From Spirochaetia bacterium (lineage in GTDB: Bacteria; Spirochaetota; Spirochaetia; UBA9216), in the NCBI GenBank assembly GCA_963675665.1, contig OY776510.1:96001-160000 (forward strand): DNA of 64,000 nucleotides. The letters are read 5' to 3'. The position numbers were made by a program, and so were the translations under genes. This document shows positions 17,534-37,844 of this stretch, in pieces. The notes below the pieces were generated by a model, which was not told the DNA's origin, made no database searches, and was given only the letters and a program-made list of their open reading frames with translations. Numbering within the stretch: position 1 is the stretch's first letter; each line of letters starts with the position of its first letter.

Positions 17534-17668
17534 TGAGTATTTTAAATCTCCCCCAGTCTGATTACTATTTTATCACTTATCAGTCCGGGATTCAAGAATG
17601 AGATTTTAAAAGAATGAACAGAGATTTATAATATGGAGATCTCCAGGCTTTAAAATGTTTATTTCGTC

Positions 17669-18703
17669 CTATTGATCGATATACTCTTCGCTCAGGATAT
17701 TATAGCAAAGATATTCAGGGAATTTCTTTCTGAGGGAAGACACAAGCACCTTCGAATCCATATCGGAAAAGAACGGCCGGGTCGGATTGACCGTTATTGC
17801 AAGCGTATTGACCGAATCAAAGACCCTCAGGCTTATTCCTTTTTTCTCCATTTTACCCTGCAGACGTGAATTTAAAAACAGGCGAGTGCTGTCTTTAATA
17901 ATTACACTTAAATCCCGTCCCCGATCGCTGTTCAGAATCTGCTCTGCACGCTTATCGGTAAGCGCCCCCGACAGAACAACCGCCCTTACGGAGTTTTCCT
18001 TTCCCAGTCCGGAGATCGCCTCATCAGCATTGCCGGCTTGCAGAACACTGCCGTCGTCGGTTATACAGCCGCTTTTTTGAGATACAAATAAATCCCGGGC
18101 GATTTCCACAAGATCCGGATCATCTAGTTCCGGTACCTTTAATTTTGATACAGCCTCTTCAGTATGCCTGACTACATCGTCTTCGGTCATTCCGAGAACA
18201 GCGCCTGTGGAGAGTATACATGCATCCGAGATCAGCGGAACTGCAGAACTTCGCCTGTCCAGCGCTCCGTCGATTAAAACCAGATCGGACTGCCGTTCCA
18301 GCAAAGGTATTATTTTTAATAATCCGGCAACCGTGTTCACTCCGATCAACTCGGCCATGCCCCCGTTGGAACCGCTGGTATATACTTTTGTCTCTCCGAA
18401 AACCGTAAAAAGGCCTGTGCCGGTTTCGGATTTAATATCAATCACAGCCGGATTAATAAAGCGTTCGGCCGTTACAAAAAGTGTATTCGGCGGTACATGT
18501 ATACGTGGTTTTTCCAGCAGGGTTATTGCATCAACCGATTCCCCATCCCGCCCGAACGAGATGAGCGCCGGTTTAAGCCCTACGGTCCGGCACTCCGCAA
18601 TAAGTGTATTGAAGGTAACTGTTTTACCTGTATTTTTTGCAAGACCAATAACCGATAACCGTTTAATTTTCTTCTCAATAATTCTGTCAACTAATCTTGC
18701 CAC
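17669..18703 (-). CDS. kamB: Lysine 5,6-aminomutase reactivase subunit KamB-like
   Basis: IGLAKNTGKTVT P-loop, SFGRDGE, LIDGALDR; position next to the kam cluster; probable GTG start at 18703. Confidence 0.7.
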   Translation of the reverse strand: MARLVDRIIEKKIKRLSVIGLAKNTGKTVTFNTLIAECRTVGLKPALISFGRDGESVDAITLLEKPRIHVPPNTLFVTAERFINPAVIDIKSETGTGLFTVFGETKVYTSGSNGGMAELIGVNTVAGLLKIIPLLERQSDLVLIDGALDRRSSAVPLISDACILSTGAVLGMTEDDVVRHTEEAVSKLKVPELDDPDLVEIARDLFVSQKSGCITDDGSVLQAGNADEAISGLGKENSVRAVVLSGALTDKRAEQILNSDRGRDLSVIIKDSTRLFLNSRLQGKMEKKGISLRVFDSVNTLAITVNPTRPFFSDMDSKVLVSSLRKKFPEYLCYNILSEEYIDQ

Positions 18704-18719
18704 TATCAATCCCGCAATG

Positions 18720-18758
18720 TAAAAATAAGCGGCGGGCCGGACGAAGCACAGCCCCCGC
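18720..18758 (-). terminator. GC-rich hairpin/terminator after nhaC
   Basis: Minus strand GCGGGGGCTG...CGGCCCGCCGC followed by TTATTTTT. Confidence 0.55.
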
Positions 18759-18787
18759 AGAGACATTTTATAATCTATTATATTGCA

Positions 18788-20230
18788 TTAAACCGATACT
18801 TTCTCTTTTTTCTTCGGATTCATGCACATCTTCTCGTCACCATACCATATTGCCCTTCCCGTGAAAGCATAGATAACCGCAATAATCGGTACAAAAAGGG
18901 CAAGATATACGAACGGAAAATACTGGGTAGTCGGTACCCCAAGCGCCCCGGTAAAAAATACACCGCAGAGACCCCACGGAACCATCGGTGAAAATACGGT
19001 ACCGGAATCTTCAAGTGTTCTTGAAAGAACATTGTTTCTCAGGTTCTGCTTCCTGTATTCAGGAATCATCATTCTTCCGGTAATTATAATTGCCATATAC
19101 TGGCTTGCTGTTGCAAGGTTAAGAAGAATACCTGAAACGACGGTTGTTGTAACAAGACCGCTTGGTTTTCTCAGCAGGACGGAAAGCTTGCCGAGGAAGA
19201 CTTCCAGCATTTTTGTTTTTTCCAGAATACCGCCAAAGGCAACACCGATAAATCCGAGTGAGACTGTCCACATCATGCCCTGAAGACCGCCCCTGCTGAC
19301 CAGTTTATCAACTACGGCAACACCGGTGTCTCCGGAGAATCCGTAATTCATAACATTTGTAATGGAAGTCAATGTGGCGCCCTGAAAGATCATTGCCAGA
19401 ATTGCCGCAATGATAGCCGAAATTATCATTGTCGGCAGCGAAGCCACTTTCTTGACGGCAAGAACAATAACCACTACAGGCGGGATAAGCAGCACAGGAT
19501 TAATAAAGTAATTTTCCTTGAGAGTAGTCAGAATGAGCCTAACCTGTGAGGTGTCTGCACTTCCCTTAACCTGAAAAGCTCCGAGTATTCCGTAAACTAC
19601 CAGTGCAAGAACAAAAGCAGGAACAGTTGTATACATCATGCTCTTAATATGGTCAAAAAGATCAGCTTCTCCTACTGCTGCAGCCAGGTTGGTTGAATCC
19701 GAAAGCGGCGACATTTTATCACCTATGATTGCTCCGCTTATAACAGCACCCGCCGTCATGGCAGGCGATACGCCAAGACCCATTCCGATACCCATCATGG
19801 CCACGCCTACGGTTCCGCCTGAAGTATAGCTGCTTCCGGTAGACATTGAAGTCAGGCCTACAATAACCGCGGCAGCTACCAGAAAATACGAAGGCTTAAG
19901 AATCAATAGTCCGTAATAGATAATTGTCTGAATTGTTCCCGAAGCAACCCAGGTTCCTATTACAACACCGATAATCATCAGTATAAGCATGGGGATCATT
20001 GCAAGATCCGCGCCGTATTGAATTGCATCCTGGATATCTTTCCACTTATATCCGGATCTCATAGCTACAATGGTTGCCACAATGATGTTTACAATCAAGG
20101 TAATATGTACGGGTATCCCTAACCACAGGACGGAGATGCCCATACTGGCAAACAGAAACAACAGAACGAATAAAACACTACCGAAACTTATTGCTTTCTT
20201 CCTTTCTTGATCTTTGATTTCGCTCATCAA
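18788..20230 (-). CDS. nhaC: NhaC-family transporter (probable amino-acid substrate)
   Basis: GSSYTSGGTVG, GAVISGAIIGDKMSPLSDSTNL, SRTLEDSGT. Confidence 0.9.
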   Translation of the reverse strand: MMSEIKDQERKKAISFGSVLFVLLFLFASMGISVLWLGIPVHITLIVNIIVATIVAMRSGYKWKDIQDAIQYGADLAMIPMLILMIIGVVIGTWVASGTIQTIIYYGLLILKPSYFLVAAAVIVGLTSMSTGSSYTSGGTVGVAMMGIGMGLGVSPAMTAGAVISGAIIGDKMSPLSDSTNLAAAVGEADLFDHIKSMMYTTVPAFVLALVVYGILGAFQVKGSADTSQVRLILTTLKENYFINPVLLIPPVVVIVLAVKKVASLPTMIISAIIAAILAMIFQGATLTSITNVMNYGFSGDTGVAVVDKLVSRGGLQGMMWTVSLGFIGVAFGGILEKTKMLEVFLGKLSVLLRKPSGLVTTTVVSGILLNLATASQYMAIIITGRMMIPEYRKQNLRNNVLSRTLEDSGTVFSPMVPWGLCGVFFTGALGVPTTQYFPFVYLALFVPIIAVIYAFTGRAIWYGDEKMCMNPKKKEKVSV

Positions 20231-20246
20231 ATTCTCCTCTATCTCT

Positions 20247-21458
20247 TCAATCTAATAATATTTTTATGAGGTAGTCATATATCGTTTCAGCTGTTCGGGC
20301 AGCCGTATCAATATAGACAAACTCATCTGCGCTGTGAAAATTTTCACCCATCGGACCGAATACATAAGTAGGTAAATCAGCTCGTGTGCCGAGATAGTTG
20401 AAATCGCCAATGCTGGAAAAATAATCAATATTTGCAGCAATCCCGGTTACATCCTTTATGCTTTGCTTCAGGATTTTCGTGTACGGGTTGCTCTCTGATA
20501 CTGTATATGGAAGGAAACTGTCGGCCCCGGGGTTCGGAGCCTCCCTGAACCTGACTTTAACCGTCCCCTTTACCCCGGCATCTTTGGCAGCCTTCAGTAT
20601 TTCATCACGAACCGAATCCGGCGTTTCCCCTACAGTAATATGACGGAACACTGAAAAGACAGCTTCTTCCGATACGGAGCAGGCTGCCTGGCCGCCACCG
20701 GAAGAGCTTGTTATACAGGTTGATCCTGCGCCCAGCTTCGGGTCTTCTATTCCCTTCAGCTCTTTTAACGCCACGATTAATTTTGAGGCTTCATAAATCG
20801 CGCTGACCCCCTTTTCAGGCTCTGCAGCATGCGCGCTTCGCCCTTTTACCGTTACCGTGTAGCTGAAACCGCCCCGCGCACCGAGGCACAGACAGGGAAA
20901 AGGCACGCGACAGAACCCCGAGCTCGGTTCCGGAACAATGGCAACATCACAATTATCAATAATTCCGTCTACAATTGCTGCATTGGTACCAAGGCCGTAA
21001 GGGCCTTCTTCATCACTTACAAGCGTATATAAAATACTGCCGTTAAATTCTTTTACATTTTCTTTGAACGCTTCGATAGCCAGCATAATGGCGGCGCAAC
21101 CGCTTTTCATATCAAGCGCGCCCACCCCATAGAGCTTTCCATCCACAAACTCGGCCCCGTACGGATCTTTTGTCCAGCCCTCGCACAAATTGACAGTATC
21201 AAGATGCCCGTTAAGCAGAACTTTCGGGCCGTCGCTGCCGCCCTTCAGCTCTCCTACTATATTTTTCCCGTTAAATCCGGTTACTTTATCTTCCTTAAAT
21301 TCATGCACCCGTGCGGGAATACCACGTTCTTTAAACCATTTATACGCAAAGTCCATAATTCGTGATTCATGAAAATACGGACTTTCAATTTGTATAAGAT
21401 CAGAAGTCAGTTTCAGTATTTTTTCATCAATACCTTCTATTACTTTTTCTCCATTCAT
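20247..21458 (-). CDS. M20 family (ArgE/DapE-like) metallo-deacylase
   Basis: NGHLDTV, GALDMKSG, SDEE, PEP and FHSADE metal ligands intact. Confidence 0.9.
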   Translation of the reverse strand: MNGEKVIEGIDEKILKLTSDLIQIESPYFHESRIMDFAYKWFKERGIPARVHEFKEDKVTGFNGKNIVGELKGGSDGPKVLLNGHLDTVNLCEGWTKDPYGAEFVDGKLYGVGALDMKSGCAAIMLAIEAFKENVKEFNGSILYTLVSDEEGPYGLGTNAAIVDGIIDNCDVAIVPEPSSGFCRVPFPCLCLGARGGFSYTVTVKGRSAHAAEPEKGVSAIYEASKLIVALKELKGIEDPKLGAGSTCITSSSGGGQAACSVSEEAVFSVFRHITVGETPDSVRDEILKAAKDAGVKGTVKVRFREAPNPGADSFLPYTVSESNPYTKILKQSIKDVTGIAANIDYFSSIGDFNYLGTRADLPTYVFGPMGENFHSADEFVYIDTAARTAETIYDYLIKILLD

Positions 21459-21467
21459 TAATTCATC

Positions 21468-22502
21468 CTATGTATACAGTTTTTCGAACATTTCTCTTAT
21501 CACGGGATTTTCCCTTAACACGTTTAAAGCTACCTCCGCATGTCCTTTTGTGTACCCGTTACCGATAATCATCTCTATATCCTTTCCTACACCTTCCGCG
21601 CCGAGCGCAGCCTTGGTAAAACTTGTTGCCATGCTGAAGAAATAGATTAAACCGTCTTCCTTAACGGAAAGGATCGAGGCCATTTCAGTATTCGGGATAT
21701 TTACATTATTTATTACGATATCAGCCGGCTTGCCGTGATTTGCTTTAAACAGCTTCTCCATAACATCCACAGCCATAGCGGCATCTGCCTGTATGATAGC
21801 ATCGGCAAGCCCGGTCTTGCGTATCCGCTCGCAACCGGCTTCGGAATGCGACAGGCCTATAATGCGTCCGGTTACGCCGGCGTGTTTTCTGGCTTCATGA
21901 AGACATAAAAGACCCGACTTGCCGCCGGCGCCTATGATAAAAACAGTTTGCCCCGGCTGAACAAGTTTTGCCGTCTGCGCGGGAGCTCCCGCTACATCAA
22001 GAACAGCAAGCCCGAGCGTGTCTTCCATGTCTGACGGCAGTTTCGCGTAAATTCCGCTTTCGAACAGTATGGCCTGCCCGTCGATATCAACCTGATCTAT
22101 ATTCTTTTTAATTTTCCTGATTTTATCTATTTTGAGCGGCGTTAACGACAGGGACACAAGGGTTGCAATCCTGTCTCCGACCTTGAGACCGTCATCTATC
22201 CGTGCATCTCCGATCTTCACAACCTCGCCGATCAGCATGCCGCCCGATCCGGTTACCGGATTCTGCATTTTTCCGCGTTCGTTAACTATGGCAAGAATCT
22301 GTTCGGCGATCTTGTCCTCATCTCCATTCGCCGCGTTTTTCAATTGGGTAAAACTTGCCGAATCAATATTAAGAGTCTGAACCTTGATCAGAACCTCGTT
22401 ATCATAGATTTCCATTGAATTATCAATTTTAACTGCCGTTTGAGGAAGAACTCCCTCAGGTTTGATAACCCGGTGCAATCCATAGCTGTTTCCTTTTTTC
22501 AT
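21468..22502 (-). CDS. kdd: L-erythro-3,5-diaminohexanoate dehydrogenase
   Basis: YGLHRVI, LNIDSASF, QNPVTGSGGM, TLVSLSLTPL, LDVAGAPAQ, GAGGKSG. Confidence 0.95.
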   Translation of the reverse strand: MKKGNSYGLHRVIKPEGVLPQTAVKIDNSMEIYDNEVLIKVQTLNIDSASFTQLKNAANGDEDKIAEQILAIVNERGKMQNPVTGSGGMLIGEVVKIGDARIDDGLKVGDRIATLVSLSLTPLKIDKIRKIKKNIDQVDIDGQAILFESGIYAKLPSDMEDTLGLAVLDVAGAPAQTAKLVQPGQTVFIIGAGGKSGLLCLHEARKHAGVTGRIIGLSHSEAGCERIRKTGLADAIIQADAAMAVDVMEKLFKANHGKPADIVINNVNIPNTEMASILSVKEDGLIYFFSMATSFTKAALGAEGVGKDIEMIIGNGYTKGHAEVALNVLRENPVIREMFEKLYT

Positions 22503-22516
22503 TATTGTTTCTCCTT

Positions 22517-23335
22517 CTAAGATATTTTCAGTATTTTTCGTGCTTCATCCGGAGCGGCTATTTCACGGCCGAATTCTTTTGCCAGACGCGCAACCCGCTC
22601 AACAAGCTGGGCATTACTTTCAGCAAGAACTCCGTATGAATAATAAATATTGTCTTCAAACCCGACCCGGACATGACCGCCGAGCGGGATCGTGTGATAA
22701 ACCATAGCCAGCTGATGCCGTCCTATACCCGAAGCGGTCCAGGTTGCTCCCGGGGGCAGCATTGAAATCATAAGAAGTAAATGCTCTATTGTTGCCGGCA
22801 TTCCACCCTTCACTCCAAGAACAAAATTGAAATGCATATGTTTAAGGCTCAGCTCTCCACGACAGATATCAAGCGCATTTGCAACATGTCCGGAATCAAA
22901 ACATTCAAGCTCCGGCAGAATATTCAGAGTGGTCAGCCGGTGCGCAAAACTGCGGATCATCTCAGGAGTATTGATAAAGACATCGTTTTCTCCGAAATTT
23001 ATCGAACCGCAATCAAGGCTTACCATTTCAGGCTTCAGTTCCACAGGCTGCTGGCGCTCTTCATAAGACATATTCACCGCCCCTCCGGTCGAGGGCTGTA
23101 TTATCGCCCGGACACCTTTCTGCTTCATCAGGTCTATTGTCTCCCTGAAGACTTCAATATCCTGAGTCGGCAGTCCTTTATCATCTCTTACATGGAGATG
23201 AATAACTGAAGCCCCGGCTTTTTCCGCATCCAGTGCGGCAACCGCAAGCTCTTCAGGTGTTATCGGAAGATTCTTGTTATCGACTTTTCTGACCTCAGCT
23301 CCGCATATGGCTGCAGTGATTATTAGTTTTTCCAT
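22517..23335 (-). CDS. kce: 3-keto-5-aminohexanoate cleavage enzyme
   Basis: KLIITAAICGAE, IHLHVR, QPSTGG, GGHVRVGFEDN. Confidence 0.95.
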   Translation of the reverse strand: MEKLIITAAICGAEVRKVDNKNLPITPEELAVAALDAEKAGASVIHLHVRDDKGLPTQDIEVFRETIDLMKQKGVRAIIQPSTGGAVNMSYEERQQPVELKPEMVSLDCGSINFGENDVFINTPEMIRSFAHRLTTLNILPELECFDSGHVANALDICRGELSLKHMHFNFVLGVKGGMPATIEHLLLMISMLPPGATWTASGIGRHQLAMVYHTIPLGGHVRVGFEDNIYYSYGVLAESNAQLVERVARLAKEFGREIAAPDEARKILKIS

Positions 23336-23337
23336 TT

Positions 23338-24075
23338 TTACATCCTTATGTTCTGTACAATATATGAAGCTACATCCGGCGGAAGAGATCCCGGCCCAAA
23401 CCCTGCGTCAAATCCCAGTTCCAGCGCCAATTCATGACTCAGCCTTGGTCCTCCGACAATCGTAACGAATTTATCTCTCAGTTCTTCCGCTTCCAGAAGC
23501 TCAACAAACTGAGTCAGGTTTTTGATGTGCACATCCTTTTGAGTGACGATCTGGGAGATCAGAATTGCATCGGCCTTTTTTTCAACGGCAAATTTAATCA
23601 GTTCTTCGTTAGAAACCTGGCTGCCGAGATTATATGCATCTATTTCCGGATACCGCTCAAGGCCGTATTCACCGGCATACCCTTTCATATTCATTATCGC
23701 ATCCAGCCCAACCGTATGAGCATCTGAACCGGTGCAGGCGCCTACGACTACTACCTTGCGACCAATATTTTTCTTTATGTAAGCATTGATCTCGTAAAAA
23801 CTCATTACGGGGGTTTCAACTTTCGGAATATGAATTGCGGTTGCATCTATGGAATGAACACAGGAGCCGTATACAACAAAAAAAGTTAATCCGCTGCCGA
23901 CTGTTTTCATATCCGCTACATCAATATTTTCCATTCCCATTTTTGCGGCCAGCTGCCTTGCGGCTTCACGTCCTTCAGGACTTCTTTCAACCGGAAGGCT
24001 GAAACTGAGCTGAACTTTGCCGTCGTTCAGGGTATCTCCGTATGCCCGAAGGTTCTTTTTATCTACACCTTTCAT
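23338..24075 (-). CDS. kamE: Lysine 5,6-aminomutase beta subunit (B12/PLP)
   Basis: YGDTLNDGKVQLSF; DAHTVG B12 motif; MNMKG PLP lysine. Confidence 0.95.
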   Translation of the reverse strand: MKGVDKKNLRAYGDTLNDGKVQLSFSLPVERSPEGREAARQLAAKMGMENIDVADMKTVGSGLTFFVVYGSCVHSIDATAIHIPKVETPVMSFYEINAYIKKNIGRKVVVVGACTGSDAHTVGLDAIMNMKGYAGEYGLERYPEIDAYNLGSQVSNEELIKFAVEKKADAILISQIVTQKDVHIKNLTQFVELLEAEELRDKFVTIVGGPRLSHELALELGFDAGFGPGSLPPDVASYIVQNIRM

Positions 24076-25646
24076 TTTATTCCAAGTTCCTTTTTAAAGA
24101 TTTCCAAGAATGGATTCAGATAGTCTTTATCTTTTTCGATTACACCGGCGGCACCCTTGCCCCCGTTAAGCGGCCTTGAAATATTTGCAAAAACGCCCCG
24201 GGATATGGCATCCATCAGGCCTTTTTCCGATATTTCTTCAAGCATATCCGTTGTTTCCTGTAAAACCTGATCTGCCCTTTTTTGAATCCGGCCGTCCTTC
24301 TTGAATTGGATTTCTTCACTTAAATGTCTTGCATTATTAAATACATAATTTGCGTTTTCGATAGAAAGGGCCCTGTCCTGAAGAAACGGTGTGTGAATAG
24401 CTTCCGTAAGCATGCCGAGAAGCTGAATGCTTTGCCCGGTCAGCACCGACGCCAGATTGAACATGCAATCCATCAGATGTCCCTTGAATATATTTCCTGT
24501 CATGTGCTTTGTCGGAGGCATGTATTTGATCGGGGCTTCGGGAAAAAGCTGCCGGACAAGCTGAGCCTGAGCCAATTCCATCAGAAATCCGTCTTCAATA
24601 TCCGGGTTTATCTCGAAAGCATGACCCAATCCCATCTGATCAGGTTTTAATCCGGATCGATATGCCAGTTCTTCATTGATAAACTGGGAAACAACTACGG
24701 TATGTGCTTCCTCAACCGCATCGGCGGTAGTCAGGTAATTATCCTCGCCGGTATTTATTATAATTCCGGCAAAAGCGTTAATCATTCTGGAAAAATACTG
24801 ATCGATAAATGTCCGCTTCATATTGATATCTCTGAACAGAATGCCGTACATTGCATCGTTGAGCATCATATCAAGCCGCTCAACAGCACCCATTGCGGAT
24901 ATTTCAGGCATTGCCAGCCCTGAGGCATAATTCACTAGCCTTACATATTTTCCGGTTTCAAGTGCAACTTCATCCAGGGCTTTTCGCATAATGCGAAAAT
25001 TCTCCTGAGTAGCATAAGTTCCCCCGAAACCTTCCGTTGTAGCCCCATACGGAACATAATCCAGCAGACTCTGCGCTGTGCTTCGGATAACCGCAATAAT
25101 ATCCGCTCCGCTTCGGGCTGCCGACTGGGCCTGAAAAACATCTTCGTATATATTACCTGTTGCAACTATGACATACAGCCAGGGTTCAGGCCCGGACGGT
25201 CTCACACTGAGCTCTTCCTCTCTTTTTTTCCGCTGTTCTTCAATTCTCTGTACGGTTTTTGCTGTATAACTTTCAAGCGCCTTTCTTACTTCTGCTTCCG
25301 AATGCTGCGGCAACCCGGTGAGTCGAATCTCGTTCTTGTCAACCATTTCGGCAATTTCCCGGGGCGTTTTCCCTGTTTCAATAACAGCGTTACCCAGCCA
25401 GTAATATATTCCGCGGCCTAAAGCTCCTGATTCGTTGACACTATCAACTACGATATTCGGCAGGGGTGTTCCGCCTGAATCAACCCCGTCGATACCTAGA
25501 AACCTTGCAACGGTTCTCTCCACCGAGGTTGTAGTATTTTTATCAATATGAACCTGAATATCATCAGCTATGGAACGGGAAGCACTGCGGCAGCGTGCCA
25601 CAAGCGCCTGATCAACTATTAATTTATCCTGTAAATTTCTTCCCAT
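24072..25646 (-). CDS. kamD: Lysine 5,6-aminomutase alpha subunit
   Basis: YVIVATGNIYED, IRSTAQSLLDYVPYG, GGTYATQENF, KYMPPTK, LTEAIHTP. Confidence 0.95.
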   Translation of the reverse strand: MGRNLQDKLIVDQALVARCRSASRSIADDIQVHIDKNTTTSVERTVARFLGIDGVDSGGTPLPNIVVDSVNESGALGRGIYYWLGNAVIETGKTPREIAEMVDKNEIRLTGLPQHSEAEVRKALESYTAKTVQRIEEQRKKREEELSVRPSGPEPWLYVIVATGNIYEDVFQAQSAARSGADIIAVIRSTAQSLLDYVPYGATTEGFGGTYATQENFRIMRKALDEVALETGKYVRLVNYASGLAMPEISAMGAVERLDMMLNDAMYGILFRDINMKRTFIDQYFSRMINAFAGIIINTGEDNYLTTADAVEEAHTVVVSQFINEELAYRSGLKPDQMGLGHAFEINPDIEDGFLMELAQAQLVRQLFPEAPIKYMPPTKHMTGNIFKGHLMDCMFNLASVLTGQSIQLLGMLTEAIHTPFLQDRALSIENANYVFNNARHLSEEIQFKKDGRIQKRADQVLQETTDMLEEISEKGLMDAISRGVFANISRPLNGGKGAAGVIEKDKDYLNPFLEIFKKELGIK

Positions 25647-25683
25647 CTGCGAATCCTCTCATAACACTATTATAAACTTATGA

Positions 25684-25699
25684 TGCAACAACTGTGCCA
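25684..25699 (-). promoter_or_regulatory. sigma54 -24/-12 promoter of the kamD operon
   Basis: TGGCAC-AGTTG-TTGCA, a consensus match 38 bp upstream of kamD. Confidence 0.9.
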
Positions 25700-25793
25700 A
25701 AAAAGTTTCTCCCGATATAAGCATACTTTTGTTGTATATTGGCCGAAACGGATGTATAATCCGTATAAACAGCTGATGCAAATAAGATTCAAT

Positions 25794-25829
25794 GATTCGT
25801 TTTAGAATCGTTTGATTCATAAATGAATC
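25794..25829. promoter_or_regulatory. Tandem palindromic upstream activator sites
   Basis: GATTC-N6-GAATC at 25794-25809 and 25814-25829, about 100-130 bp from the sigma54 promoter. Confidence 0.65.
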
Positions 25830-27574
25830 GTTTTATTGAGGAGATCATTATTTTAAATTCAATTTTGAATTCGCTTGAAGAAGGAATACTGGTTGCAGAT
25901 CCTGAGTTAAGAATTATTTTCATGAACCCCAAGGCCGAAACGATTCTTAAACTGAATACCGACAAGCATACCGGCCGGGTTTTATGGGAAACTGATCTCG
26001 CCCCCGAGATACTCCTTATCCTGACATCAAAAAAAACGGGATACACCCACAGGCTTGATGTCGGAGGCGAATCCATTCTTGTAAAAGGACTGCCTTTTTC
26101 CGATAAAACAGAAGCAAAAGGTTCGATCTGGATAATACAAAGAACCTCTGATGCACCGGAAACAGACTCGCTCATCTGCAAAACAACCGAACAGGAACTG
26201 AACGCAATTATTGAATCGGTCTCCGACGGCATCTACGTAACGGACGGAAAAGGAATAACCCTGCGTGTTAATTCAGCTTTTCAACAGATTACGGGAATTA
26301 AAGAAAATGACGTTAAGGGTCTTCATGTTGAAGATCTGATAAAAATGGACGTCTTCAGGAAATCAGCTACAGTTTCCGTTCTTGCAGAAAAAAGACAGGT
26401 CAGTATGGTAGAGAACCTTAAGATAGGAAAAGAAGTTCTTCTTACCGGCACGCCTGTATTTGATAACAATAATGAGATCTTCAGGGTTGTAACCACATTA
26501 AGGGATATTGAAAGCCTCAATGAACTCAAGAAAAAGCTTGCCGTCTCCCAGGAAAAAACAAAACTGTATGAGAAGGAACTTTTTCAGCTAAGACTTCAGC
26601 AGATGGATATGGAGAATGTCGTAATTAACTCCCGCCAGATGCATGAAGCGGTACAGACCGCCATGCGCCTTGGAGAAGTTAATTCAAATGTGCTGATTTC
26701 CGGAGAATCCGGGGTAGGAAAGGATATTATTGCCAGAATTATACATAAAACCGGGCTCGGAGAGGACGCGCCGCTGATTACAAGCAATTGCGGGGCTATT
26801 CCGGAGTCATTAATCGAGTCTGAGCTCTTCGGATACGAAGGAGGCGCCTTTACCGGTGCGAAAAAAGAAGGCAGCCCCGGACTGTTTGAACTGGCCCGCG
26901 GAGGCACCCTTTTCCTGGACGAGATTGGAGAACTGCCGATCAGTTTTCAGTCGAAGTTCCTCAGGGCTATCCAGGAAAAGGAAATAAGACGAGTTGGGGG
27001 CAACAAGCCCATCAAACTGGACTTCAGGCTTATTGCCGCTACCAACCGTGATCTTGAAGAAATGGTCAGCAGGAAACTTTTTCGCAGCGACCTGTTTTAC
27101 CGGCTGAATGTTGTTCCTCTTAACATCCCGCCGTTACGGGAACGCAGGGAAAGTATCGTAATTTTTGTTTATAAATTCCTCGAAGTATATAACCGCCAGT
27201 TCAACAGGGTTGTTCAGATCAGTCCGGAAGCGCTTCAGATCCTCGAGGATTACGACTGGCCCGGAAACGTACGTGAACTGAAAAACCTGATTGAGCGGCT
27301 GGTGGTTCTGGTTGTCGGAAACGTTATTGAAGCAAACGATATTCCGAGATATATCAGAAGCGTACATTCGGAAGAAACAGAAAACCAGATCTCACTGCAT
27401 GGAATTATGCCGCTGAACAGGGCCATTGAGGAACTCGAATATCAACTGCTGACAAAAACTTACAAAAAATACTCATCAACCAGGGAAACCGCCAAAATAC
27501 TCGGTATCAGCCAGTCTCAGGTGTCGAGAAAACTGACCAAATACAATATCTATAACGGCCCCGAAGAAAACTGA
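25823..27574 (+). CDS. PAS-PAS sigma54-dependent transcriptional activator
   Basis: Two PAS-like regions, GESGVGKD, ESELFG..GAFTGA, FLDEIGE, WPGNVREL, C-terminal HTH. Confidence 0.95.
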   Translation: MNRFIEEIIILNSILNSLEEGILVADPELRIIFMNPKAETILKLNTDKHTGRVLWETDLAPEILLILTSKKTGYTHRLDVGGESILVKGLPFSDKTEAKGSIWIIQRTSDAPETDSLICKTTEQELNAIIESVSDGIYVTDGKGITLRVNSAFQQITGIKENDVKGLHVEDLIKMDVFRKSATVSVLAEKRQVSMVENLKIGKEVLLTGTPVFDNNNEIFRVVTTLRDIESLNELKKKLAVSQEKTKLYEKELFQLRLQQMDMENVVINSRQMHEAVQTAMRLGEVNSNVLISGESGVGKDIIARIIHKTGLGEDAPLITSNCGAIPESLIESELFGYEGGAFTGAKKEGSPGLFELARGGTLFLDEIGELPISFQSKFLRAIQEKEIRRVGGNKPIKLDFRLIAATNRDLEEMVSRKLFRSDLFYRLNVVPLNIPPLRERRESIVIFVYKFLEVYNRQFNRVVQISPEALQILEDYDWPGNVRELKNLIERLVVLVVGNVIEANDIPRYIRSVHSEETENQISLHGIMPLNRAIEELEYQLLTKTYKKYSSTRETAKILGISQSQVSRKLTKYNIYNGPEEN

Positions 27575-27649
27575 GATCGAATTGATCTGACGGCTGCCGC
27601 AATCTTTCACTTTTTGCTTCAAACGCGCCTCCGTTATCCCTTTTGATAA

Positions 27650-27665
27650 TGGCACACTTATTGCA
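27650..27665 (+). promoter_or_regulatory. sigma54 promoter of the CoA-transferase-kal operon
   Basis: TGGCAC-ACTTA-TTGCA. Confidence 0.9.
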
Positions 27666-27698
27666 TATATTAAATTAACTTTTAGGAGGAACAGAAAT

Positions 27699-28718
27699 AT
27701 GGATACAAAATATGATGACTGCGGTGTCCTGGATTCCGGTACGGGACCTGTTTTTATGGATCCCGATCCGGACAAAGCCCGATTATTTTTTAGAAATAAA
27801 TCAAAAAAAATGTCTGTTAAACTTACATCCATGGAAGAAGCCGTTCGGGCAAATGTTCATGACGGGGATTACCTTGTGGTTGGAGGATTCGGTTCCAACC
27901 GAACTCCGTTCCATGCTGTTCACGAGATTGTCCGTCAAAAAAGAAAACATCTGAAATTTGCCGGACACACGTCCACTCACGATATGCAGGTTCTGGCTGC
28001 CGGCAATACCTTTGATTGCATCGATATAGCTTATATCATCGGGCTGGAAGCCCGCGGACTTTCGAAATGCAGCCGCAAACTCTTCGAGGAAAACCGTGTA
28101 CAGTTCAATGAAGATACGAACTACGGTCTTGCCATGAGGTTTAAAGCGGCAGCCATGGGTATTCCGTACATACCGACACGTAATGTTATGGGAACAGACA
28201 CATTCAGGAACGGATGCGGGAAGATCATAACCTGTCCGTTTACAGGAAAGAAACTTGTTGCAAAACCTGCCATTTATCCCGATGTTTCAGTCCTTCATGT
28301 ACATGAAGCAGACAAATACGGCAATGCACGTTTCAGGGGCATATCTGTTTCCGATATAGATGTAGCCAATTGCACAAAGAGGCTGATCATAACTGCCGAA
28401 CGTATTATTGACCATGAGGAATTCCGCAACAACCCGGATTCTACAATGATTCCGTACTATCTGGTAGACGCCGTCGTTTCTTCCCCATGGGGAGCATACC
28501 CGGGAACCATGCCTTATGAATATTTTTCCGATGAAGATCATCTCGGCGAATGGCTTTCAGCTGAAAAAGACCCCGAAACATTCAGGAAATTTCTCGACAA
28601 AAACATTTACAGCTGCAAAAATCATTTCGAATATATAGAAAAAAACGGCGGACTCGAAAAAATGGCGCATCTTCACGAGCTTGAGATGCTTACTTACAAG
28701 GAGGACAGCAATGGCTGA
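27699..28718 (+). CDS. Family I CoA-transferase subunit A (glutaconate CoA-transferase-like)
   Basis: DGDYLVVGGFG, RFKAAAMGIPY, CPFTG, HVHEADKYGNA. Confidence 0.85.
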   Translation: MDTKYDDCGVLDSGTGPVFMDPDPDKARLFFRNKSKKMSVKLTSMEEAVRANVHDGDYLVVGGFGSNRTPFHAVHEIVRQKRKHLKFAGHTSTHDMQVLAAGNTFDCIDIAYIIGLEARGLSKCSRKLFEENRVQFNEDTNYGLAMRFKAAAMGIPYIPTRNVMGTDTFRNGCGKIITCPFTGKKLVAKPAIYPDVSVLHVHEADKYGNARFRGISVSDIDVANCTKRLIITAERIIDHEEFRNNPDSTMIPYYLVDAVVSSPWGAYPGTMPYEYFSDEDHLGEWLSAEKDPETFRKFLDKNIYSCKNHFEYIEKNGGLEKMAHLHELEMLTYKEDSNG

Positions 28719-29478
28719 TTACAATACAATGGAACTGATGATTGTCGCCGCATCCAGAGAGCTGGAAAACGGCGCAACCGTCGGTGTAGGTACCGGGGCC
28801 CCCTGCGCCGCCGCCATGCTTGCCCAGAAAACGCATGCGCCGGATCTGGTCATCCTTTTTGAAGCGGGCGGAATCAGCCCCCAACTGCCTGAAATGCCCA
28901 TAAGCGTCGGCGACAGCCGGACTTTCTACCGCGCAATCAAGGCAGGCGGCATGTGCGATATCATGGATGCATGCGCCAGGGGTCTGGTTGATTATACCTT
29001 TCTCGGAGGTGCGCAGATAGACATGTACGGCAACCTTAATTCAACAGTTATCGGCGACTATGAAAAACCGAAGGTCAGACTTCCCGGAAGCGGAGGCGCA
29101 AACGATTTTGCTTCATTCTGCTGGCGGACAATGGTAATTACGCCCCAGGACAAACGGCGGTTTGTTGAAAAACTTGATTTTCTGACCACTCCGGGATGGA
29201 TTACCGGGGGTAATTCAAGAACAGAGGCAGGTCTTCCGGAAGATACAGGCCCATATAAAATAATCACTGATATGGCAATTATGGGTTTTGACGAAGAATC
29301 AAAGCGTATGACCGTTCTGAGCCTCAATCCGGGAAGCACAAAAGAAATGGTGCAGGAAAACTGCGGCTTCGAGCTTCTCTGGGCAAAAAACATCACTGAA
29401 ACGCCTCCTCCGACAAAAGAGGAGCTCAGGATATTAAGAGAACAGGTTGACCCAAAGAAATATATTATAGGCCGGTAA
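28711..29478 (+). CDS. Family I CoA-transferase subunit B (GctB-like)
   Basis: VGTGAP, LFEAG catalytic Glu, [20 protein letters not shown]. Confidence 0.85.
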
Positions 29479-29500
29479 AATAAAAAGGAGAAATACATCA

Positions 29501-29890
29501 ATGGGAAATATAAACTCAACATTAAGACTGAGAATGTCGCATAAAGACGCACATTACGGAGGGAGCCTTATCGACGGGGCCCATATGGTTCATCTGTTCG
29601 GAGATCTGGCCACCGAGCTTCTGATAATTCTTGACGGCGACGAAGGCCTCTTTCTTCGATACGATGAGGTTGAATTCCTGGCCCCGGTATATGCGGGAGA
29701 CTACATAGAAGTATACGGGGAAATAACCGGGATCGGAAACACATCCAGAACAATGGAATTCACGGCAAAGAAGGTTGTTGCGGCACGACCTGACATCAGC
29801 CCGTCAGCCGCTGATGCACTTGACGAACCGATAACCGTAGTAAGGGCTAAAGGTGTCTGCGTAACACCGAAAGAATCAAAGCGGAAATAA
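29501..29890 (+). CDS. kal: 3-aminobutyryl-CoA ammonia-lyase (hotdog fold)
   Basis: [51 protein letters not shown]. Confidence 0.9.
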
Positions 29891-29932
29891 TTACAGCAAC
29901 GTTTTAAGGATTTGCAGTTGCTCAGGCAAGTC

Positions 29933-29969
29933 GCCGGTTTCAACCTGGTTGCTTTCGGTTGAAACCGGC
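29933..29969. terminator. Hairpin between convergent kal and pheT
   Basis: GCCGGTTTCAACC...GGTTGAAACCGGC 13-bp stem. Confidence 0.65.
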
Positions 29970-29989
29970 AATTTATATTATTGCCGTTA

Positions 29990-32410
29990 TCACCCCTGTT
30001 TAAGCGGGTAACCGGCTTTGTCAAGCTCAGCTACAATCCTGTCTTCAGCAGATCTCAGAAAATCAGGAGTCAGTGTCTTGTCCCGATCAAGCAGCCAGGA
30101 ACGCAGTGTTACTGTTTTATTTGTTTCAGACAGCGGGTAAACATCGACAATTTTTGTATCAACAAGTTCCTTCATCTTCACTTTTCCAAGGACAGCCAGA
30201 ACATCGGCAACCGGAGCAGCGGTATCGGCAACAACAGTACAATCGAAGGTTGAGCCGGGAAATTTCGGAAGAGGCTGATATCTGGTCTTGTCACTGACAG
30301 GCCTGTCCATGAAATCAGTAATATCAAGTACCGCCATAACAAGATTGCCCTTGATTTTAAAGTTTCTGCACATCAGCGGATGAACTGTTCCGATAAAACC
30401 GCAGTTTTTGCCCATAACCATTATATCAAGGAACTCGTTCGGATGCCGGCCGACCCAGTCGGAAGCAACAAGAGGGTTTTTAAATTTTGCAGTCGGGGGT
30501 TGAATCCGGGCATTAAGACTCAGATTCTCAAGCAAGTCTCCCATCAGGTTCACGACTTCCATAAAAGGCGAACCGTTCCTGTCATGATAGATGATTCCAA
30601 GCTGGTGCCGTTCCTCACTGAAATTTTCATCTGATTCCAGATAGCTTCTGCCTAGTTCGAACAGTCTGAATCTGGAATGAAATTTCTGGTTGAACGCTGC
30701 TTTCTCTATAAGCGACGGCACAAGAGAAGGCCGCATTCTGTCAGTCTCCGGGCTGAGCGCATTTGCAAGAACAAGCCCCTCATTCAGAACATTCCATCCG
30801 GCCTGTTCCAGCAGTTTTGCCCCGGTGAGCGGATAACTGTAAATTTCAAGCGCCCTGCCCCGATAAACCATAAAGTCCATGATACTGCGTTCCATTGTCC
30901 TGGCGGAGCTCAGGGATACAGCGGTAACTTCATTGTGAGGAGCTACAGGAACAAGTTTGTCATAACCGTAAATTCTGCCGATATCTTCTATCAGATCAGC
31001 ATCAACCTCAACATCTTTTGTTGAACGGTATGAAGGAACAGTAACTTTCAGAACTTTATCGCCCGGTCCTATCACGTAATCAAGCGATTCAAGTATACGT
31101 ATTACTTCGTCCTGCTCCAGTTTCGTTCCAAGAATGGAATTTACCCGGGCAAGGGTTAAATCAATAACCAGCGGCGGAGAAAGTTCCAGACGATCAGACA
31201 CAAGCGGCCCGACGACTTTCGCCTGCGGACAGCTTTCCTGCAACAGTTCCAGAATCCTCAGCGCCGTACGTTCAAGCTGATGACTGTCCAGCGACTTCTC
31301 GTAACGCTGAGACGCATCGGTCCTCAATCCCAGTCTGGTTGAGGTATGGCGGATCCGTTCAGGTTTCCAGTTGGCTACTTCTATAAAAACACGGCTTGTA
31401 TCATCTTTAACGCTTGACGTGAGCCCGCCCATAATACCGCCGATTGATGAAGGCCCTTCAGCATCGCACACCATCGTGTCCGAAGGAATCATTTTCCGCT
31501 CAACTTCATCAAGGGTTATAAAAATTGAATCTTCACCGTTTTCGCGGACGATTATCTTTCCCCCGCAGATTGTATCACGATCAAAAATATGGTTCGGCAT
31601 ACCCTGTTCAAGCATCACGTAGTTTGAAATATCAACTATATTATTGATAGGCCTCATCCCGCAGGCTGTAAGGCGCTGCTGCATCCAGACGGGGCTCGGC
31701 TTAATCTCAACATTATCAACACTCAAGCCCAGGAATCCCAGGCATGCGCAGTCTTCCTGCACCTCAATTGTTACGGGAGGAACCGAATCGTTATAAAACG
31801 CGCGCATTTTCTCAATCCATGCATCGTCAAAAGGTTTCGCAAGCGGCTTTCCGAACGCGGCGGCAAACTCGCGCGCCATACCGTAATGCCCCCAGAGGTC
31901 GGGGCGGTGAGTAATTGATTTATTATCAATATCAAGCAGAACATCGTGCTTGATCTGCATCAGCTGTGCCAGTGTAACGCCCACAGCCGCGTCGGACGGA
32001 AGCTCGAGAAGCCCCTCATGCCCGTCGCCCAGGCCCAGCTCGTCTTCGGCACAGAGCATTCCCTCGCTCAGGATTCCCCGTATCTTCTTCGGCTCAAGGG
32101 TGAATCCGATCGGAAGTGTTGTTCCGACCGGCGCAAAAGGAACCTTCATACCCGGGGCTACATTCGGCGCGCCGCAGACAACCCGTCGCTCTCCGCTGCC
32201 TGTTTCAAAGCTGACCAGCCTCAGCTTGTCGGCTTCGGGATGAGGCTCAACCTTTGTTATTTCGGCAACTATCACCTTTTCCATATGCGCATTGGCTTCT
32301 TCAACACCTTCAACTTCGCATGTGGACAGCGTGAACCTCACACCCATTTCTCTGGGCGAAAGCTCCGGTAATTCAACAAAATCTTTTATCCAGTCTAAAC
32401 TGATTATCAT
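29990..32410 (-). CDS. pheT: Phenylalanine-tRNA ligase beta subunit
   Basis: HPEADKL, VVCGAPN, IRGILSEGMLC, ITHRPDL, INNIVDISNY. Confidence 0.95.
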   Translation of the reverse strand: MIISLDWIKDFVELPELSPREMGVRFTLSTCEVEGVEEANAHMEKVIVAEITKVEPHPEADKLRLVSFETGSGERRVVCGAPNVAPGMKVPFAPVGTTLPIGFTLEPKKIRGILSEGMLCAEDELGLGDGHEGLLELPSDAAVGVTLAQLMQIKHDVLLDIDNKSITHRPDLWGHYGMAREFAAAFGKPLAKPFDDAWIEKMRAFYNDSVPPVTIEVQEDCACLGFLGLSVDNVEIKPSPVWMQQRLTACGMRPINNIVDISNYVMLEQGMPNHIFDRDTICGGKIIVRENGEDSIFITLDEVERKMIPSDTMVCDAEGPSSIGGIMGGLTSSVKDDTSRVFIEVANWKPERIRHTSTRLGLRTDASQRYEKSLDSHQLERTALRILELLQESCPQAKVVGPLVSDRLELSPPLVIDLTLARVNSILGTKLEQDEVIRILESLDYVIGPGDKVLKVTVPSYRSTKDVEVDADLIEDIGRIYGYDKLVPVAPHNEVTAVSLSSARTMERSIMDFMVYRGRALEIYSYPLTGAKLLEQAGWNVLNEGLVLANALSPETDRMRPSLVPSLIEKAAFNQKFHSRFRLFELGRSYLESDENFSEERHQLGIIYHDRNGSPFMEVVNLMGDLLENLSLNARIQPPTAKFKNPLVASDWVGRHPNEFLDIMVMGKNCGFIGTVHPLMCRNFKIKGNLVMAVLDITDFMDRPVSDKTRYQPLPKFPGSTFDCTVVADTAAPVADVLAVLGKVKMKELVDTKIVDVYPLSETNKTVTLRSWLLDRDKTLTPDFLRSAEDRIVAELDKAGYPLKQG

Positions 32411-33766: not shown

Positions 33767-34432
33767 TTATAAAATCTCAACCTGCTTGAAATCAGGCGCG
33801 ACAACAAGATTTGCGGTAGTGCTCTCCTGAACAAACTCTGCCGTATACGGCGCAAAAGTTTCTTTCAGAATAAAAGCGCCGTCCTTTATCTCAAAGTACC
33901 CGACATCAGTCACAAGGATATCAACCTCGTTCTGTGCAGTCAGCGGAAGCGTGCATTTTTCCATGAGCTTTGAATTGCCGTGCTTGTCAAAATGAACAGT
34001 GGCCGCAATCACCTTTTTTGATCCTACAGTAAGATCCATTGCTCCGCCCATACCGGGCACCATTTTGCCCGGTATCTTGTAATTCGCAAGGTTCCCGTGC
34101 TGGTCGACCTCAAGCACGCCGAGGACCGTATAATCAACATGTCCTCCCCGGATTATTCCGAATGACGTTGCCGAGTCAAAATAACAGCCGCCCTTCAACA
34201 AGGTTACCGGAGAACCGCCGGCGTTTACCAGAAACGGATCGACATTATCCTTATCAGGAACTGGTCCGAGACCGATAAAACCGTTTTCCGACTGAAGAAT
34301 AATCTCTACGCCCTCAGGCAGATAATTGCCTACAAGAGTCGGCAGTCCGATTCCCAGGTTTACAACATTTCCGTTTGAGAACAGAAGGGCAATCCGCTTT
34401 GCAATTACATCTTTATTGGGTTTATAATCCAT
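33767..34432 (-). CDS. atoA: Acetate CoA/acetoacetate CoA-transferase beta subunit
   Basis: VNLGIGLPT, LQSENG catalytic Glu, IIRGGH, GMGGAMDL. Confidence 0.9.
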   Translation of the reverse strand: MDYKPNKDVIAKRIALLFSNGNVVNLGIGLPTLVGNYLPEGVEIILQSENGFIGLGPVPDKDNVDPFLVNAGGSPVTLLKGGCYFDSATSFGIIRGGHVDYTVLGVLEVDQHGNLANYKIPGKMVPGMGGAMDLTVGSKKVIAATVHFDKHGNSKLMEKCTLPLTAQNEVDILVTDVGYFEIKDGAFILKETFAPYTAEFVQESTTANLVVAPDFKQVEIL

Positions 34433-34433
34433 T

Positions 34434-35123
34434 TTACCTGCCCCCCTTTTTTTCAGTTTTGACCAGATATTTCACGAATATCGACGGTGTTACAACACAT
34501 TCCGGGTCAATTTCACCTATTTCAACAATCTCATCCGCCTGTACTATTACAGTCTCGCATGCCATAGCCATCAGGGGACCGAAATTCCGCGCTGATCGCG
34601 CATACATCAGGTTGCCGGCCTTGTCAGCCACACTCGCATGCAGCAGCGCAATATTTCCGGATATAGGGTGTTCCAGAAGGTACCTGCGGCCCTGGTACTC
34701 CAGGACCTGTTTCCCTTCCTCTACCTCGGTTCCGACTCCGGTCGGGGTCAGGAACCCTCCGAGACCGCAGCCCGCGGAACGAATCCTCTCGGCAAGCGTT
34801 CCCTGCGGCACAAGCTCCACATCCGTTTCGCCGGCAATCATCTGCCGCTGAATCTCGGCATTAAGCCCGATGTGCGTTGCAACAACCCTTGAAAACTGCT
34901 TGTCAAGCACGTTCATTGCCACACCGGTAATCATGTCCTTATCGGGTATATACCAGCCACAGTCGTTACAGACAAGGGTTAAATTCTTTGTGCCCGCGTT
35001 TCTCAGGCACTCCAGCAGTTCCGGAGGCGATCCGCAGCCCATAAATCCCCCGACCATAACCACATCGCCGGATTTTATAAGCTTTACCGCCGCCTCACAG
35101 GACAGTATTTCTTTTTCTACCAT
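34434..35123 (-). CDS. atoD: Acetate CoA/acetoacetate CoA-transferase alpha subunit
   Basis: MVGGF, HIGLN, PQGTLAERIR, LTPTGVGT, ARNFGP. Confidence 0.9.
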   Translation of the reverse strand: MVEKEILSCEAAVKLIKSGDVVMVGGFMGCGSPPELLECLRNAGTKNLTLVCNDCGWYIPDKDMITGVAMNVLDKQFSRVVATHIGLNAEIQRQMIAGETDVELVPQGTLAERIRSAGCGLGGFLTPTGVGTEVEEGKQVLEYQGRRYLLEHPISGNIALLHASVADKAGNLMYARSARNFGPLMAMACETVIVQADEIVEIGEIDPECVVTPSIFVKYLVKTEKKGGR

Positions 35124-35138
35124 TACTTAAGCGTCCTC

Positions 35139-36317
35139 CTACATCTCGACACAGAGAGCCGCACCCATTCCGCCGCCTATGCACAGGGTTGCAATTCCTT
35201 TATGAAGATTGCGTCTTTTCATTTCATATATCAGTGTTACAAGAATCCTGGCGCCGCTGGCCCCGATCGGGTGACCGATCGCAATGGCCCCGCCGTTTAC
35301 ATTGATTAACGAGGTATCCCAGCCGAGTTCCCTGTTTACCGCTATCGACTGCGCGGCAAAAGCTTCGTTGGCTTCAATCAGCTCAAGGTTGCCAATGCTC
35401 CATCCGGCTTTTTTCAGCGCAACCTTGACCGCTCCTACGGGTCCGATACCCATAATCTCCGGCGGACAGCCGGCATAACCGTATGAAACAATGCGGGCCA
35501 GCGGTTCAACATTTTTCTGTTTTAAAACATCCTCTGAAACAAGAATCGCCGCCGCAGCGGAGTCGTTGATTCCTGATGCGTTTCCGGCTGTTACAGTCCC
35601 GTCTTTTTTGAACGCGGGGCGCAGTTTCGCAAGCCCCTCAACAGTTGCACCTTCACGGATATACTCGTCATCCTTGAAAGCAACCGGATCGCCCTTCCGC
35701 TGAGGAATTCCAACAGAGGTTATTTCTTCCTGGAACCGCCCGGACTTTCTTGCTTCTTCGGCCTTATTCTGCGACGCACATGCAAATTCGTCCTGCTCTT
35801 CACGGCTGATTCCATATTTTTCAGCAAGGTTCTCTGCTGTTATGCCCATATGATAGTTATTGTATTTTTCCCATAAACCGTCATAAACCATACCGTCTAC
35901 AATCTCTCCGTTGCCCATCCGGTACCCGTAACGGGCTTTCGGAAGAAGATACGGCGCCATAGACATATTTTCGGTTCCGCCGGCAATAATTGTATCGGCA
36001 TCACCGCATTTAATGCTCTGGGTTCCCAGCATTAAAGCCCTTAACCCTGAACCGCATACCATATTCACGGACATTGCAGTCTTTTCCACCGGAATACCGG
36101 AATAGATGGCAGCCTGGCGTGCTACATTCTGTCCCAGGCCCGCGCCCAGAACATTACCCAATATCACCTCATCAATTTCTTCGGGCATGATGTCATTTCT
36201 TTTATAAAGATCAACAATAACATCCTTTGCAAAATCTGCGGGGTGGACGTTTGATAACGTCCCCCCGAAACTGCCCACAGCGGTCCTGGAGCAGTCCAGT
36301 ATATATACATCTTTCAT
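35139..36317 (-). CDS. atoB: Acetyl-CoA acetyltransferase (thiolase)
   Basis: [30 protein letters not shown]. Confidence 0.95.
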
Positions 36318-36327
36318 ACTTAATCCC

Positions 36328-37662: not shown

Positions 37663-37693
37663 ATTATTCCTCCAAATTGTTTTTCACCATTAA

Positions 37694-37709
37694 AGCAATA
37701 AGGAGGCCA
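37694..37709 (-). promoter_or_regulatory. sigma54 promoter of atoEBDA
   Basis: TGGCCT-CCTTA-TTGCT. Confidence 0.8.
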
Positions 37710-37805
37710 ATTTTTATCTGCTTGATTAATTTAAATAATTCCTTTCCGGACAGACATATACACAGGATAACAAAAAGAGCTGTTTGGTCGGCGTTGATTA
37801 CAGGA

Positions 37806-37840
37806 TGCAAAATCCTGCATCCCGCATGCATATTCCTGCA
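37806..37840. promoter_or_regulatory. Tandem AtoC-type activator sites
   Basis: TGCA-AAATCC-TGCA and TGCA-TATTCC-TGCA, 21 bp apart and about 100 bp upstream of the sigma54 site. Confidence 0.7.
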
Positions 37841-37844
37841 GATA

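Follow-up and report, generated by a model that had tools for sequence, protein, structure and literature searches.

The lysine-fermentation pathway is textbook knowledge, and its published gene clusters start with KamA, the lysine 2,3-aminomutase; where is the pathway entered when a cluster carries no kamA? The question is raised by a 12.4-kb cassette of an anaerobic Spirochaetia bacterium (assembly GCA_963675665.1, contig OY776510.1), which was found in a stretch of 64,000 nucleotides (positions 96,001 to 160,000 of the forward strand; this whole stretch is called the window). The cassette brings its own regulator, transporter and hydrolase as well as every enzyme after beta-lysine, and it is best read as a self-contained, sigma54-controlled unit for catabolising external beta-lysine, either free or as an N-acyl conjugate. 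Judging by gene content and context, its NhaC-family carrier may import beta-lysine or N-acyl-beta-lysine, and its M20 amidohydrolase would deacylate the latter, with the pathway being entered after KamA, a reading to which we give a probability of about 0.4. The gene identities, the operon layout, the promoters, the genome-wide lack of a canonical kamA and the comparative distribution are the established part of this picture.

A lysine-fermentation unit without its first enzyme

The source genome (G000; G, C and L numbers are our labels for genomes, contigs and loci) is a closed single contig of 5.15 Mb, in which a six-frame search with the lysine 2,3-aminomutase model TIGR03820 (cut-off 525.4 bits) found no canonical kamA and no pseudogene or broken copy. 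The best match, at 287 bits, is a 363-aa protein of the KamA family which is devoid of most of the C-terminal domain. Because this paralogue coexists with true KamA in G004, G008 and G010, occurs in relatives without KamD, has no detectable sigma54 site at its gene, and shares the genome with an EpmA/GenX-like gene (264 bits, cut-off 286.9), it would most simply be an EpmB-like enzyme of elongation factor P (EF-P) modification. A 762-aa protein that joins an ATP-grasp-like region to a KamA-like radical SAM domain, encoded beside a NeuB-family gene (L002:1384-3672; G000:C1, about 806-808 kb), reached 114.7 bits with the KamA model and was rejected as KamA. No KamC above the 300-bit cut-off was detected in the genome either. 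KamC also stays below the cut-off in all five relatives with kam clusters, four of which have kamA in the cluster, so its lack is typical of the lineage and says nothing about the pathway. The sequence-only reading, which had noticed neither kamA nor KamC in the cluster or the window, thus holds for the whole closed genome.

All 11 genes of the cassette are open frames, and KamD, KamE, Kdd, Kce, Kal and KamB each score above the cut-off of their own NCBIfam equivalog. The features are as follows, with model scores in bits against the respective cut-off.

17534..29989: whole 12.4-kb cassette, lying between parE and pheT, an insertion relative to the same-genus genome G005
17669..18766, minus strand: kamB, lysine 5,6-aminomutase reactivase subunit (NF052386, 259 vs 210)
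18788..20230, minus strand: NhaC-superfamily carrier, candidate importer of the M20 substrate (TIGR00931, 447.9 vs 370)
20247..21458, minus strand: M20 (DapE/ArgE-like) amidohydrolase, uncharacterised, candidate feeder deacylase (Pfam Peptidase_M20 and M20_dimer)
21468..22502, minus strand: kdd, 3,5-diaminohexanoate dehydrogenase (NF052381, 276 vs 200)
22517..23335, minus strand: kce (NF052387, 398 vs 382; BKACE domain)
23338..24075, minus strand: kamE, lysine 5,6-aminomutase beta (B12-binding) subunit (NF052385, 391 vs 280)
24072..25646, minus strand: kamD (NF052384, 888 vs 600; PF09043)
25684..25699, minus strand: exact sigma54 -24/-12 element, TGGCAC-N5-TTGCA, 38 nt before kamD
25774..25830: three tandem TGATTC-N6-GAATCG palindromes, spaced 19-20 bp, candidate enhancer (upstream activating sequence, UAS)
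25823..27574, plus strand: sigma54 enhancer-binding protein (EBP) with PAS, AAA+ and HTH domains (Sigma54_activat, 220)
27650..27665, plus strand: second exact sigma54 -24/-12 element, TGGCAC-N5-TTGCA, 34 nt before the CoA-transferase-like/kal operon
27699..28718, plus strand: glutaconate-CoA-transferase-like subunit A (CoA_trans; best PDB match 1POI_A, E 3e-36)
28681..29478, plus strand: CoA-transferase-like subunit B (CoA_trans, 100)
29501..29890, plus strand: kal, 3-aminobutyryl-CoA ammonia lyase (NF052388, 180 vs 160)

The minus-strand genes follow one another in the order kamD-kamE-kce-kdd-M20-nhaC-kamB, with spacers of -4, 2, 14, 9, 16 and 21 nt in turn. A tight run from kamD to nhaC, kamB next and kal divergent had been described by the sequence-only reading, and these genes are indeed intact at the coordinates listed above. 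Glutaconate CoA-transferase is the closest solved relative of the CoA-transferase-like pair between the EBP and kal. The EBP reached 446 bits with the PrdR model, under its cut-off of 795, and no Kat-like gene was seen among the cassette open reading frames (ORFs) of the window.

The cassette displays the marks of sigma54-dependent operons, namely the -24/-12 consensus, an adjacent EBP, and a genomic rpoN (413.6 bits, cut-off 277.35). Exactly two perfect TGGCAC-N5-TTGCA sites are present in the window. One of them stands ahead of kamD, as had been proposed earlier; instead of the single site noted then, there are two, the other exact one lying ahead of the CoA-transferase-like/kal operon. The candidate UAS palindromes lie upstream of the kamD promoter at a distance of about 75-145 nt, and their two exact copies have no further counterpart in the 5.15-Mb genome; at up to two mismatches the motif was not found ahead of the second promoter. 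A co-regulated kamA elsewhere, which had been named as a finding that would speak against a feed of acyl-beta-lysine, did not turn up, as the EpmB-like gene is without a sigma54 site and the UAS motif occurs nowhere else. A further sigma54-like site with one mismatch lies inside pheT (31956-31971) and is probably a chance match, since 1.87 sites are expected at no more than one mismatch.

Just past pheST, the window also contains atoA, atoD and a thiolase gene (33785-38804), which are 53-58% identical to genes of Halanaerobiales operons and are followed by another sigma54-type regulator (38% identity). As these three genes adjoin pheST, acetoacetate handling is encoded beside the cassette.

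Only about 590 bp, with no cassette match, separate parCE (C126:11070-14637) from the beginning of pheT (C126:15229-16118) in G005, a genome of the same genus, which makes the 12.4-kb cassette an insertion in the source genome; on this gene order, it entered as one unit, with parE and pheT flanking the site. An equally kamA-less copy of the cassette, 80% identical, is carried by G012 (L006/G046), which belongs to another spirochaete family. Nine of the ten proteins compared are 71-86% identical between the two copies (KamB, 53%), and dN is 0.09-0.39 with saturated synonymous sites, so that the arrangement without kamA is taken to be old and subject to purifying selection, although this comparison cannot show selection within G000 alone. 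In G012, kamA is isolated on a separate contig, and no acetyltransferase is encoded near it. The same-genus genome G004 possesses a kamA-containing cluster of different gene order, where the proteins are 28-62% identical to those of the cassette (KamD, KamE and Kdd, 54-62%). The spirochaete clusters form the following series.

G006: kamD-kamE-kce-kdd-kamA-kamB
G008: kamD-kamE-kce-kdd-M20-kamA-kamB
L007: kce-kdd-M20-nhaC-kamA-kamB
Window: kamD-kamE-kce-kdd-M20-nhaC-kamB

This series indicates that the kamA-less form is derived, and by gene order and divergence it is also old and maintained. The cassette is, in sum, a maintained, mobile lysine-fermentation unit without the first enzyme.

Two relatives carry irregular kam genes. 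G001, of the same genus, contains a kamA-like frame of 469 bits with four in-frame TGA codons and no kamD (C57:1770-2894, L089), which looks decaying but possibly reflects an assembly or recoding issue. G010, of the same family, has a kamD split into two overlapping frames (C4:2215368-2216898) in a cluster that is otherwise like that of G008, and the split could be a frameshift.

The M20 amidohydrolase and its carrier

The M20 protein possesses the Peptidase_M20 and M20 dimerisation domains of Pfam (89.7 and 53.4 bits), reaches 200.9 bits with the ArgE/DapE model TIGR01910, under the cut-off of 217.6, and received only generic M20 names from the ESM Atlas. Its predicted structure (predicted local distance difference test, pLDDT, 93.5) matches DapE best among PDB entries, with template modelling (TM) scores of 0.75-0.82 at 19-24% identity. 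H85, D87, D116, E150, E151, E177 and H375 are invariant in 28 orthologues, and their spacing presumably corresponds to the DapE metal-ligand pattern, a match at the level of sequence rather than of residue-by-residue structural mapping. The solved DapE/ArgE deacylases (PDB 7UOI, 5VO3 and 7RSF) share with it the two-domain M20 fold (TM 0.71-0.82 overall) and presumably the metal-ligand pattern of the invariant residues. Unlike them, the M20 enzyme of the window falls below the TIGR01910 cut-off, retains the low identity given above, and stands in a catabolic rather than a lysine- or arginine-biosynthesis context.

The NhaC-family protein scored 362 bits with the ArcD model NF052307, under the cut-off of 650, and its context suggests a solute carrier with a basic amino-acid-like substrate. 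It belongs to the same superfamily as ArcD and as the candidate lysine carrier LysW (PMC5584792; this and the other articles are cited for their accessible parts), and differs from them by this sub-threshold score and by the lack of a lysine riboswitch before it. Such a riboswitch, which would indicate L-lysine, was found ahead of nhaC neither in the window nor in nine related NhaC-M20 loci, where the search returned only T-box and S-adenosylmethionine (SAM) elements at other genes.

Orthologues of the M20 enzyme with 49-81% identity were collected from 80 loci. An NhaC homologue is present in 35 of these, nearly always directly adjoining M20, and in other loci M20 has an SSS or AgcS carrier as its neighbour. 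The context met most often is an NhaC-M20-Amidohydro_3-BTAD module (27-30 loci, including one of Clostridium subterminale, L067), which sets two different amidohydrolases beside one carrier and occurs in Clostridia with kamD elsewhere in the genome (for example L012:8528-14193, with an Amidohydro_3 protein of 516 aa). A quick maximum-likelihood tree (IQ-TREE) of 79 rows, from which L052, L080 and L085 are absent as no M20 ORF was called in them, places the window M20 in a 21-row clade of Spirochaetota, Halanaerobiales, Atribacterota and Synergistota (SH-aLRT support 91). Thirteen rows of this clade adjoin kam or butyrate genes, and tblastn added two more (L032 and L078).

The association extends to whole genomes, with counts that ignore kinship among genomes, include G041-G118 of unknown completeness, and omit L041 and L053 (the same metagenome-assembled genomes, MAGs, as L039 and L051) as well as G092 from the KamA count. 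KamD was detected in 61 of 78 M20-bearing genomes (34/40 and 27/38), and KamD or KamA in 72 of the 78. In an even sample of the class Clostridia, 14 of 200 genomes carry KamD, as do all three M20 holders; among the spirochaete relatives, KamD is above the cut-off in 8 of 41, including four of four M20 holders. For Halanaerobiales genomes of at least 90% completeness, KamD is found in 29 of 50 and M20 in nine, all of them KamD-positive, against none of the 21 genomes without KamD. By this distribution and by gene neighbourhood, M20 and NhaC form a conserved, co-transcribed couple that is linked with lysine-fermentation genes in several phyla.

M20 genomes that do not hold KamD belong mainly to Synergistota (8/8) and Atribacterota (2/2). 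In five such loci, KamA lies directly beside M20 (L068, L069, L071 and L078 of Synergistota, L023 of Atribacterota), and in L068 (8478-11173) and L071 the KamA-M20 pair is followed by an SSS carrier. The KamA proteins of these genomes score 581-648 bits, and the three scored among those adjoining M20 (L068, L071 and L023) reach 602-615 bits; true KamA is present somewhere in seven of the eight M20-bearing Synergistota genomes. KamD was found in none of the five KamA-M20 genomes and in none of the eight Synergistota genomes. One possibility is that the KamA-M20 module salvages lysine from a beta-lysine conjugate. Lysine auxotrophy of these organisms was considered, and since LysA is above its cut-off in three of the five KamA-M20 genomes, no inference was drawn.

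In the closed Halanaerobiales genome G321, a long operon behind a sigma54 promoter opens with M20 and NhaC and continues with atoD-thl-atoA-kamB-kamD-kamE-kal-kce-kdd-kat. Its kamA (L106:4905-8038) is monocistronic, lies 310 kb from the kam operon beside a different PAS-AAA+ regulator (32% identity), and has no detectable consensus sigma54 site. Complete M20-NhaC-led operons without kamA are also seen on the MAG contigs L096, L099 and L097. A HemL-like gene in the kamA-less operons of Halanaerobiales was rejected as a substitute aminomutase, as it fits the published description of the Kat aminotransferase (PMC3149608).

Entry of the pathway at beta-lysine

On the proposed route, the NhaC-family carrier would import beta-lysine or its N-acyl conjugate, and the M20 amidohydrolase would strip the acyl group. 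KamDE, kept active by KamB, would then shift the 6-amino group to carbon 5, and Kdd would oxidise the resulting 3,5-diaminohexanoate. Kce, with acetyl-CoA, would yield acetoacetate and 3-aminobutyryl-CoA, from which Kal would release crotonyl-CoA and ammonia, and the acetoacetate could be handled by the CoA-transferases and the nearby thiolase. For the source genome, entry at beta-lysine is the simplest reading because there is no canonical kamA or pseudogene, the M20-NhaC pair is conserved, and no co-regulated kamA exists elsewhere. It is favoured by the closed genome together with the old cassette shared with G012, by G321, and by the operons on L096, L099 and L097. It is also favoured by the fact that beta-lysine is the only metabolite common to the KamA-only and KamDE-only contexts of one M20 clade, where organisms with KamA alone would use the reversible aminomutase in the direction of L-lysine.

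N-epsilon-acetyl-beta-lysine, the best-known natural candidate, is a possible substrate. This compound is made by AblA and AblB (as cited in PMC3543383), and the route proposed here would concern the same metabolite family in the opposite direction. The source genome lacks canonical AblA/KamA and gave no match to the AblB acetyltransferase model TIGR03827; as AblB is likewise missing from all five KamA-M20 genomes, a self-made osmolyte is unlikely to be turned over by the known route. A cross-feeding on acetyl-beta-lysine, in which holders of KamDE would ferment the beta-lysine set free, forming acetate or butyrate plus ammonia, while the KamA-only Synergistota and Atribacterota would reverse KamA to salvage L-lysine, seems rather unlikely at present.

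Several observations weigh against entry at beta-lysine. True KamA is present in 63 of 77 M20 genomes and directly adjoins M20 in G008/G010, L007, Synergistota and Atribacterota, so that M20 could equally release L-lysine. Among M20-positive Halanaerobiales, KamA is above the cut-off in seven of nine, with one more split over contig ends and one (G055) without any, compared with 18 of 20 genomes that have KamD and no M20; the earlier expectation that M20 and NhaC would track kamA-less clusters is therefore not supported. Apart from G000 and G321, most kamA-less cases come from MAGs whose completeness is unknown, and in two instances (G054 and G088) a seeming lack of kamA turned out to be an assembly artefact, with fragments at contig edges. 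The 363-aa paralogue retains the cluster cysteines as well as Asp/Lys motifs aligned with the residues that bind lysine in 2A5H, and with such motifs kept, it might supply some beta-lysine. The chemistry is a further difficulty, as DapE/ArgE-type M20 enzymes cleave N-alpha-acyl (or beta-ureido) amides beside a carboxylate and are not known to cleave an epsilon-amide. N-epsilon-acetyl-beta-lysine lacks an amide beside the carboxylate and would be an unusual substrate for them; for this reason, N-alpha-acetyl-L-lysine or N-beta-acyl-beta-lysine would fit better.

Much of the same evidence suits the main rival, a feed of L-lysine, in which the carrier would import either a lysine peptide or an acyl-L-lysine (acetylated at N-alpha or N-epsilon), with M20 freeing L-lysine and KamA acting on it; in the source genome, the EpmB-like paralogue would replace KamA, or the route would be crippled. 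The frequency of KamA in M20 genomes and its place next to M20 speak for this explanation, as do the DapE/ArgE-like fold, whose family acts on N-alpha-acyl diamino acids, and the lysine-type motifs of the paralogue. N-alpha-acetyl-lysine is, in addition, a known halophile solute (PMC4685198). Yet the cassette is intact and under purifying selection in a closed genome without canonical KamA, the paralogue is found alongside true KamA in relatives and also in genomes that have no KamD, and the kamA of G321 is unlinked and beside a different regulator. Moreover, no fate is known for the beta-lysine that the KamD-less KamA-M20 genomes would form from L-lysine, and we regard an L-lysine feed as somewhat doubtful.

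It is improbable that the two proteins are only loosely coupled, the carrier importing free beta-lysine or lysine, or balancing Na+/H+ in an ammonia-releasing fermentation, and M20 being a general peptidase or aminoacylase. The NhaC superfamily does include LysW (PMC5584792), the ArcD model gives a substantial sub-threshold score, and orthologues of M20 are found in other contexts, such as the Amidohydro_3-BTAD module or beside AgcS carriers. However, M20 remains paired with a carrier even though that carrier comes from any of three families (NhaC, SSS and AgcS), which indicates a shared substrate, M20 is nearly confined to genomes with KamD or KamA, and M20 and NhaC come first after the Halanaerobiales sigma54 promoter. 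Very unlikely, finally, is a horizontally acquired, non-working passenger for which no beta-lysine is available in the source genome. The insertion relative to the congener and the patchy kam genes of the genus, including the interrupted kamA-like frame of G001, would agree with it, whereas the 11 open genes, the exact consensus of both promoters and a dN far below dS relative to the G012 copy would not. On balance, the interpretation given by the sequence-only reading is partly supported.

Known systems and significance

Compared with the canonical lysine-fermentation cluster (kamA, kamDE, kdd, kce and kal), as far as it is described in the accessible part of PMC3149608, the cassette shares KamD, KamE, Kdd, Kce, Kal and KamB and has AtoDA and a thiolase nearby. 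Unlike that cluster, it is without kamA and adds M20, an NhaC-family carrier, a glutaconate-CoA-transferase-like pair, and control by sigma54 and an EBP. In the Kat variant described in the same source, which uses a 3-aminobutyryl-CoA aminotransferase, the upstream steps are the same; the Halanaerobiales relatives carry a HemL-like Kat homologue in the operon, while the window keeps Kal. A literature search, with subscription journals outside its coverage, found no report on the catabolism of acetyl-beta-lysine or on M20 in lysine fermentation.

The hydrolase-carrier pair is recurrent and often promoter-proximal in these operons, across at least five phyla, mostly anaerobes from saline or subsurface settings, and a complete genome retains lysine fermentation without the first enzyme. 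If the pair handles an acyl-L-lysine, it would still be a new feeder step for the pathway. If instead it handles a beta-lysine conjugate, it would be the first catabolic route for an abundant osmolyte of archaea, and it would form a cross-feeding link from methanogens to fermenters.

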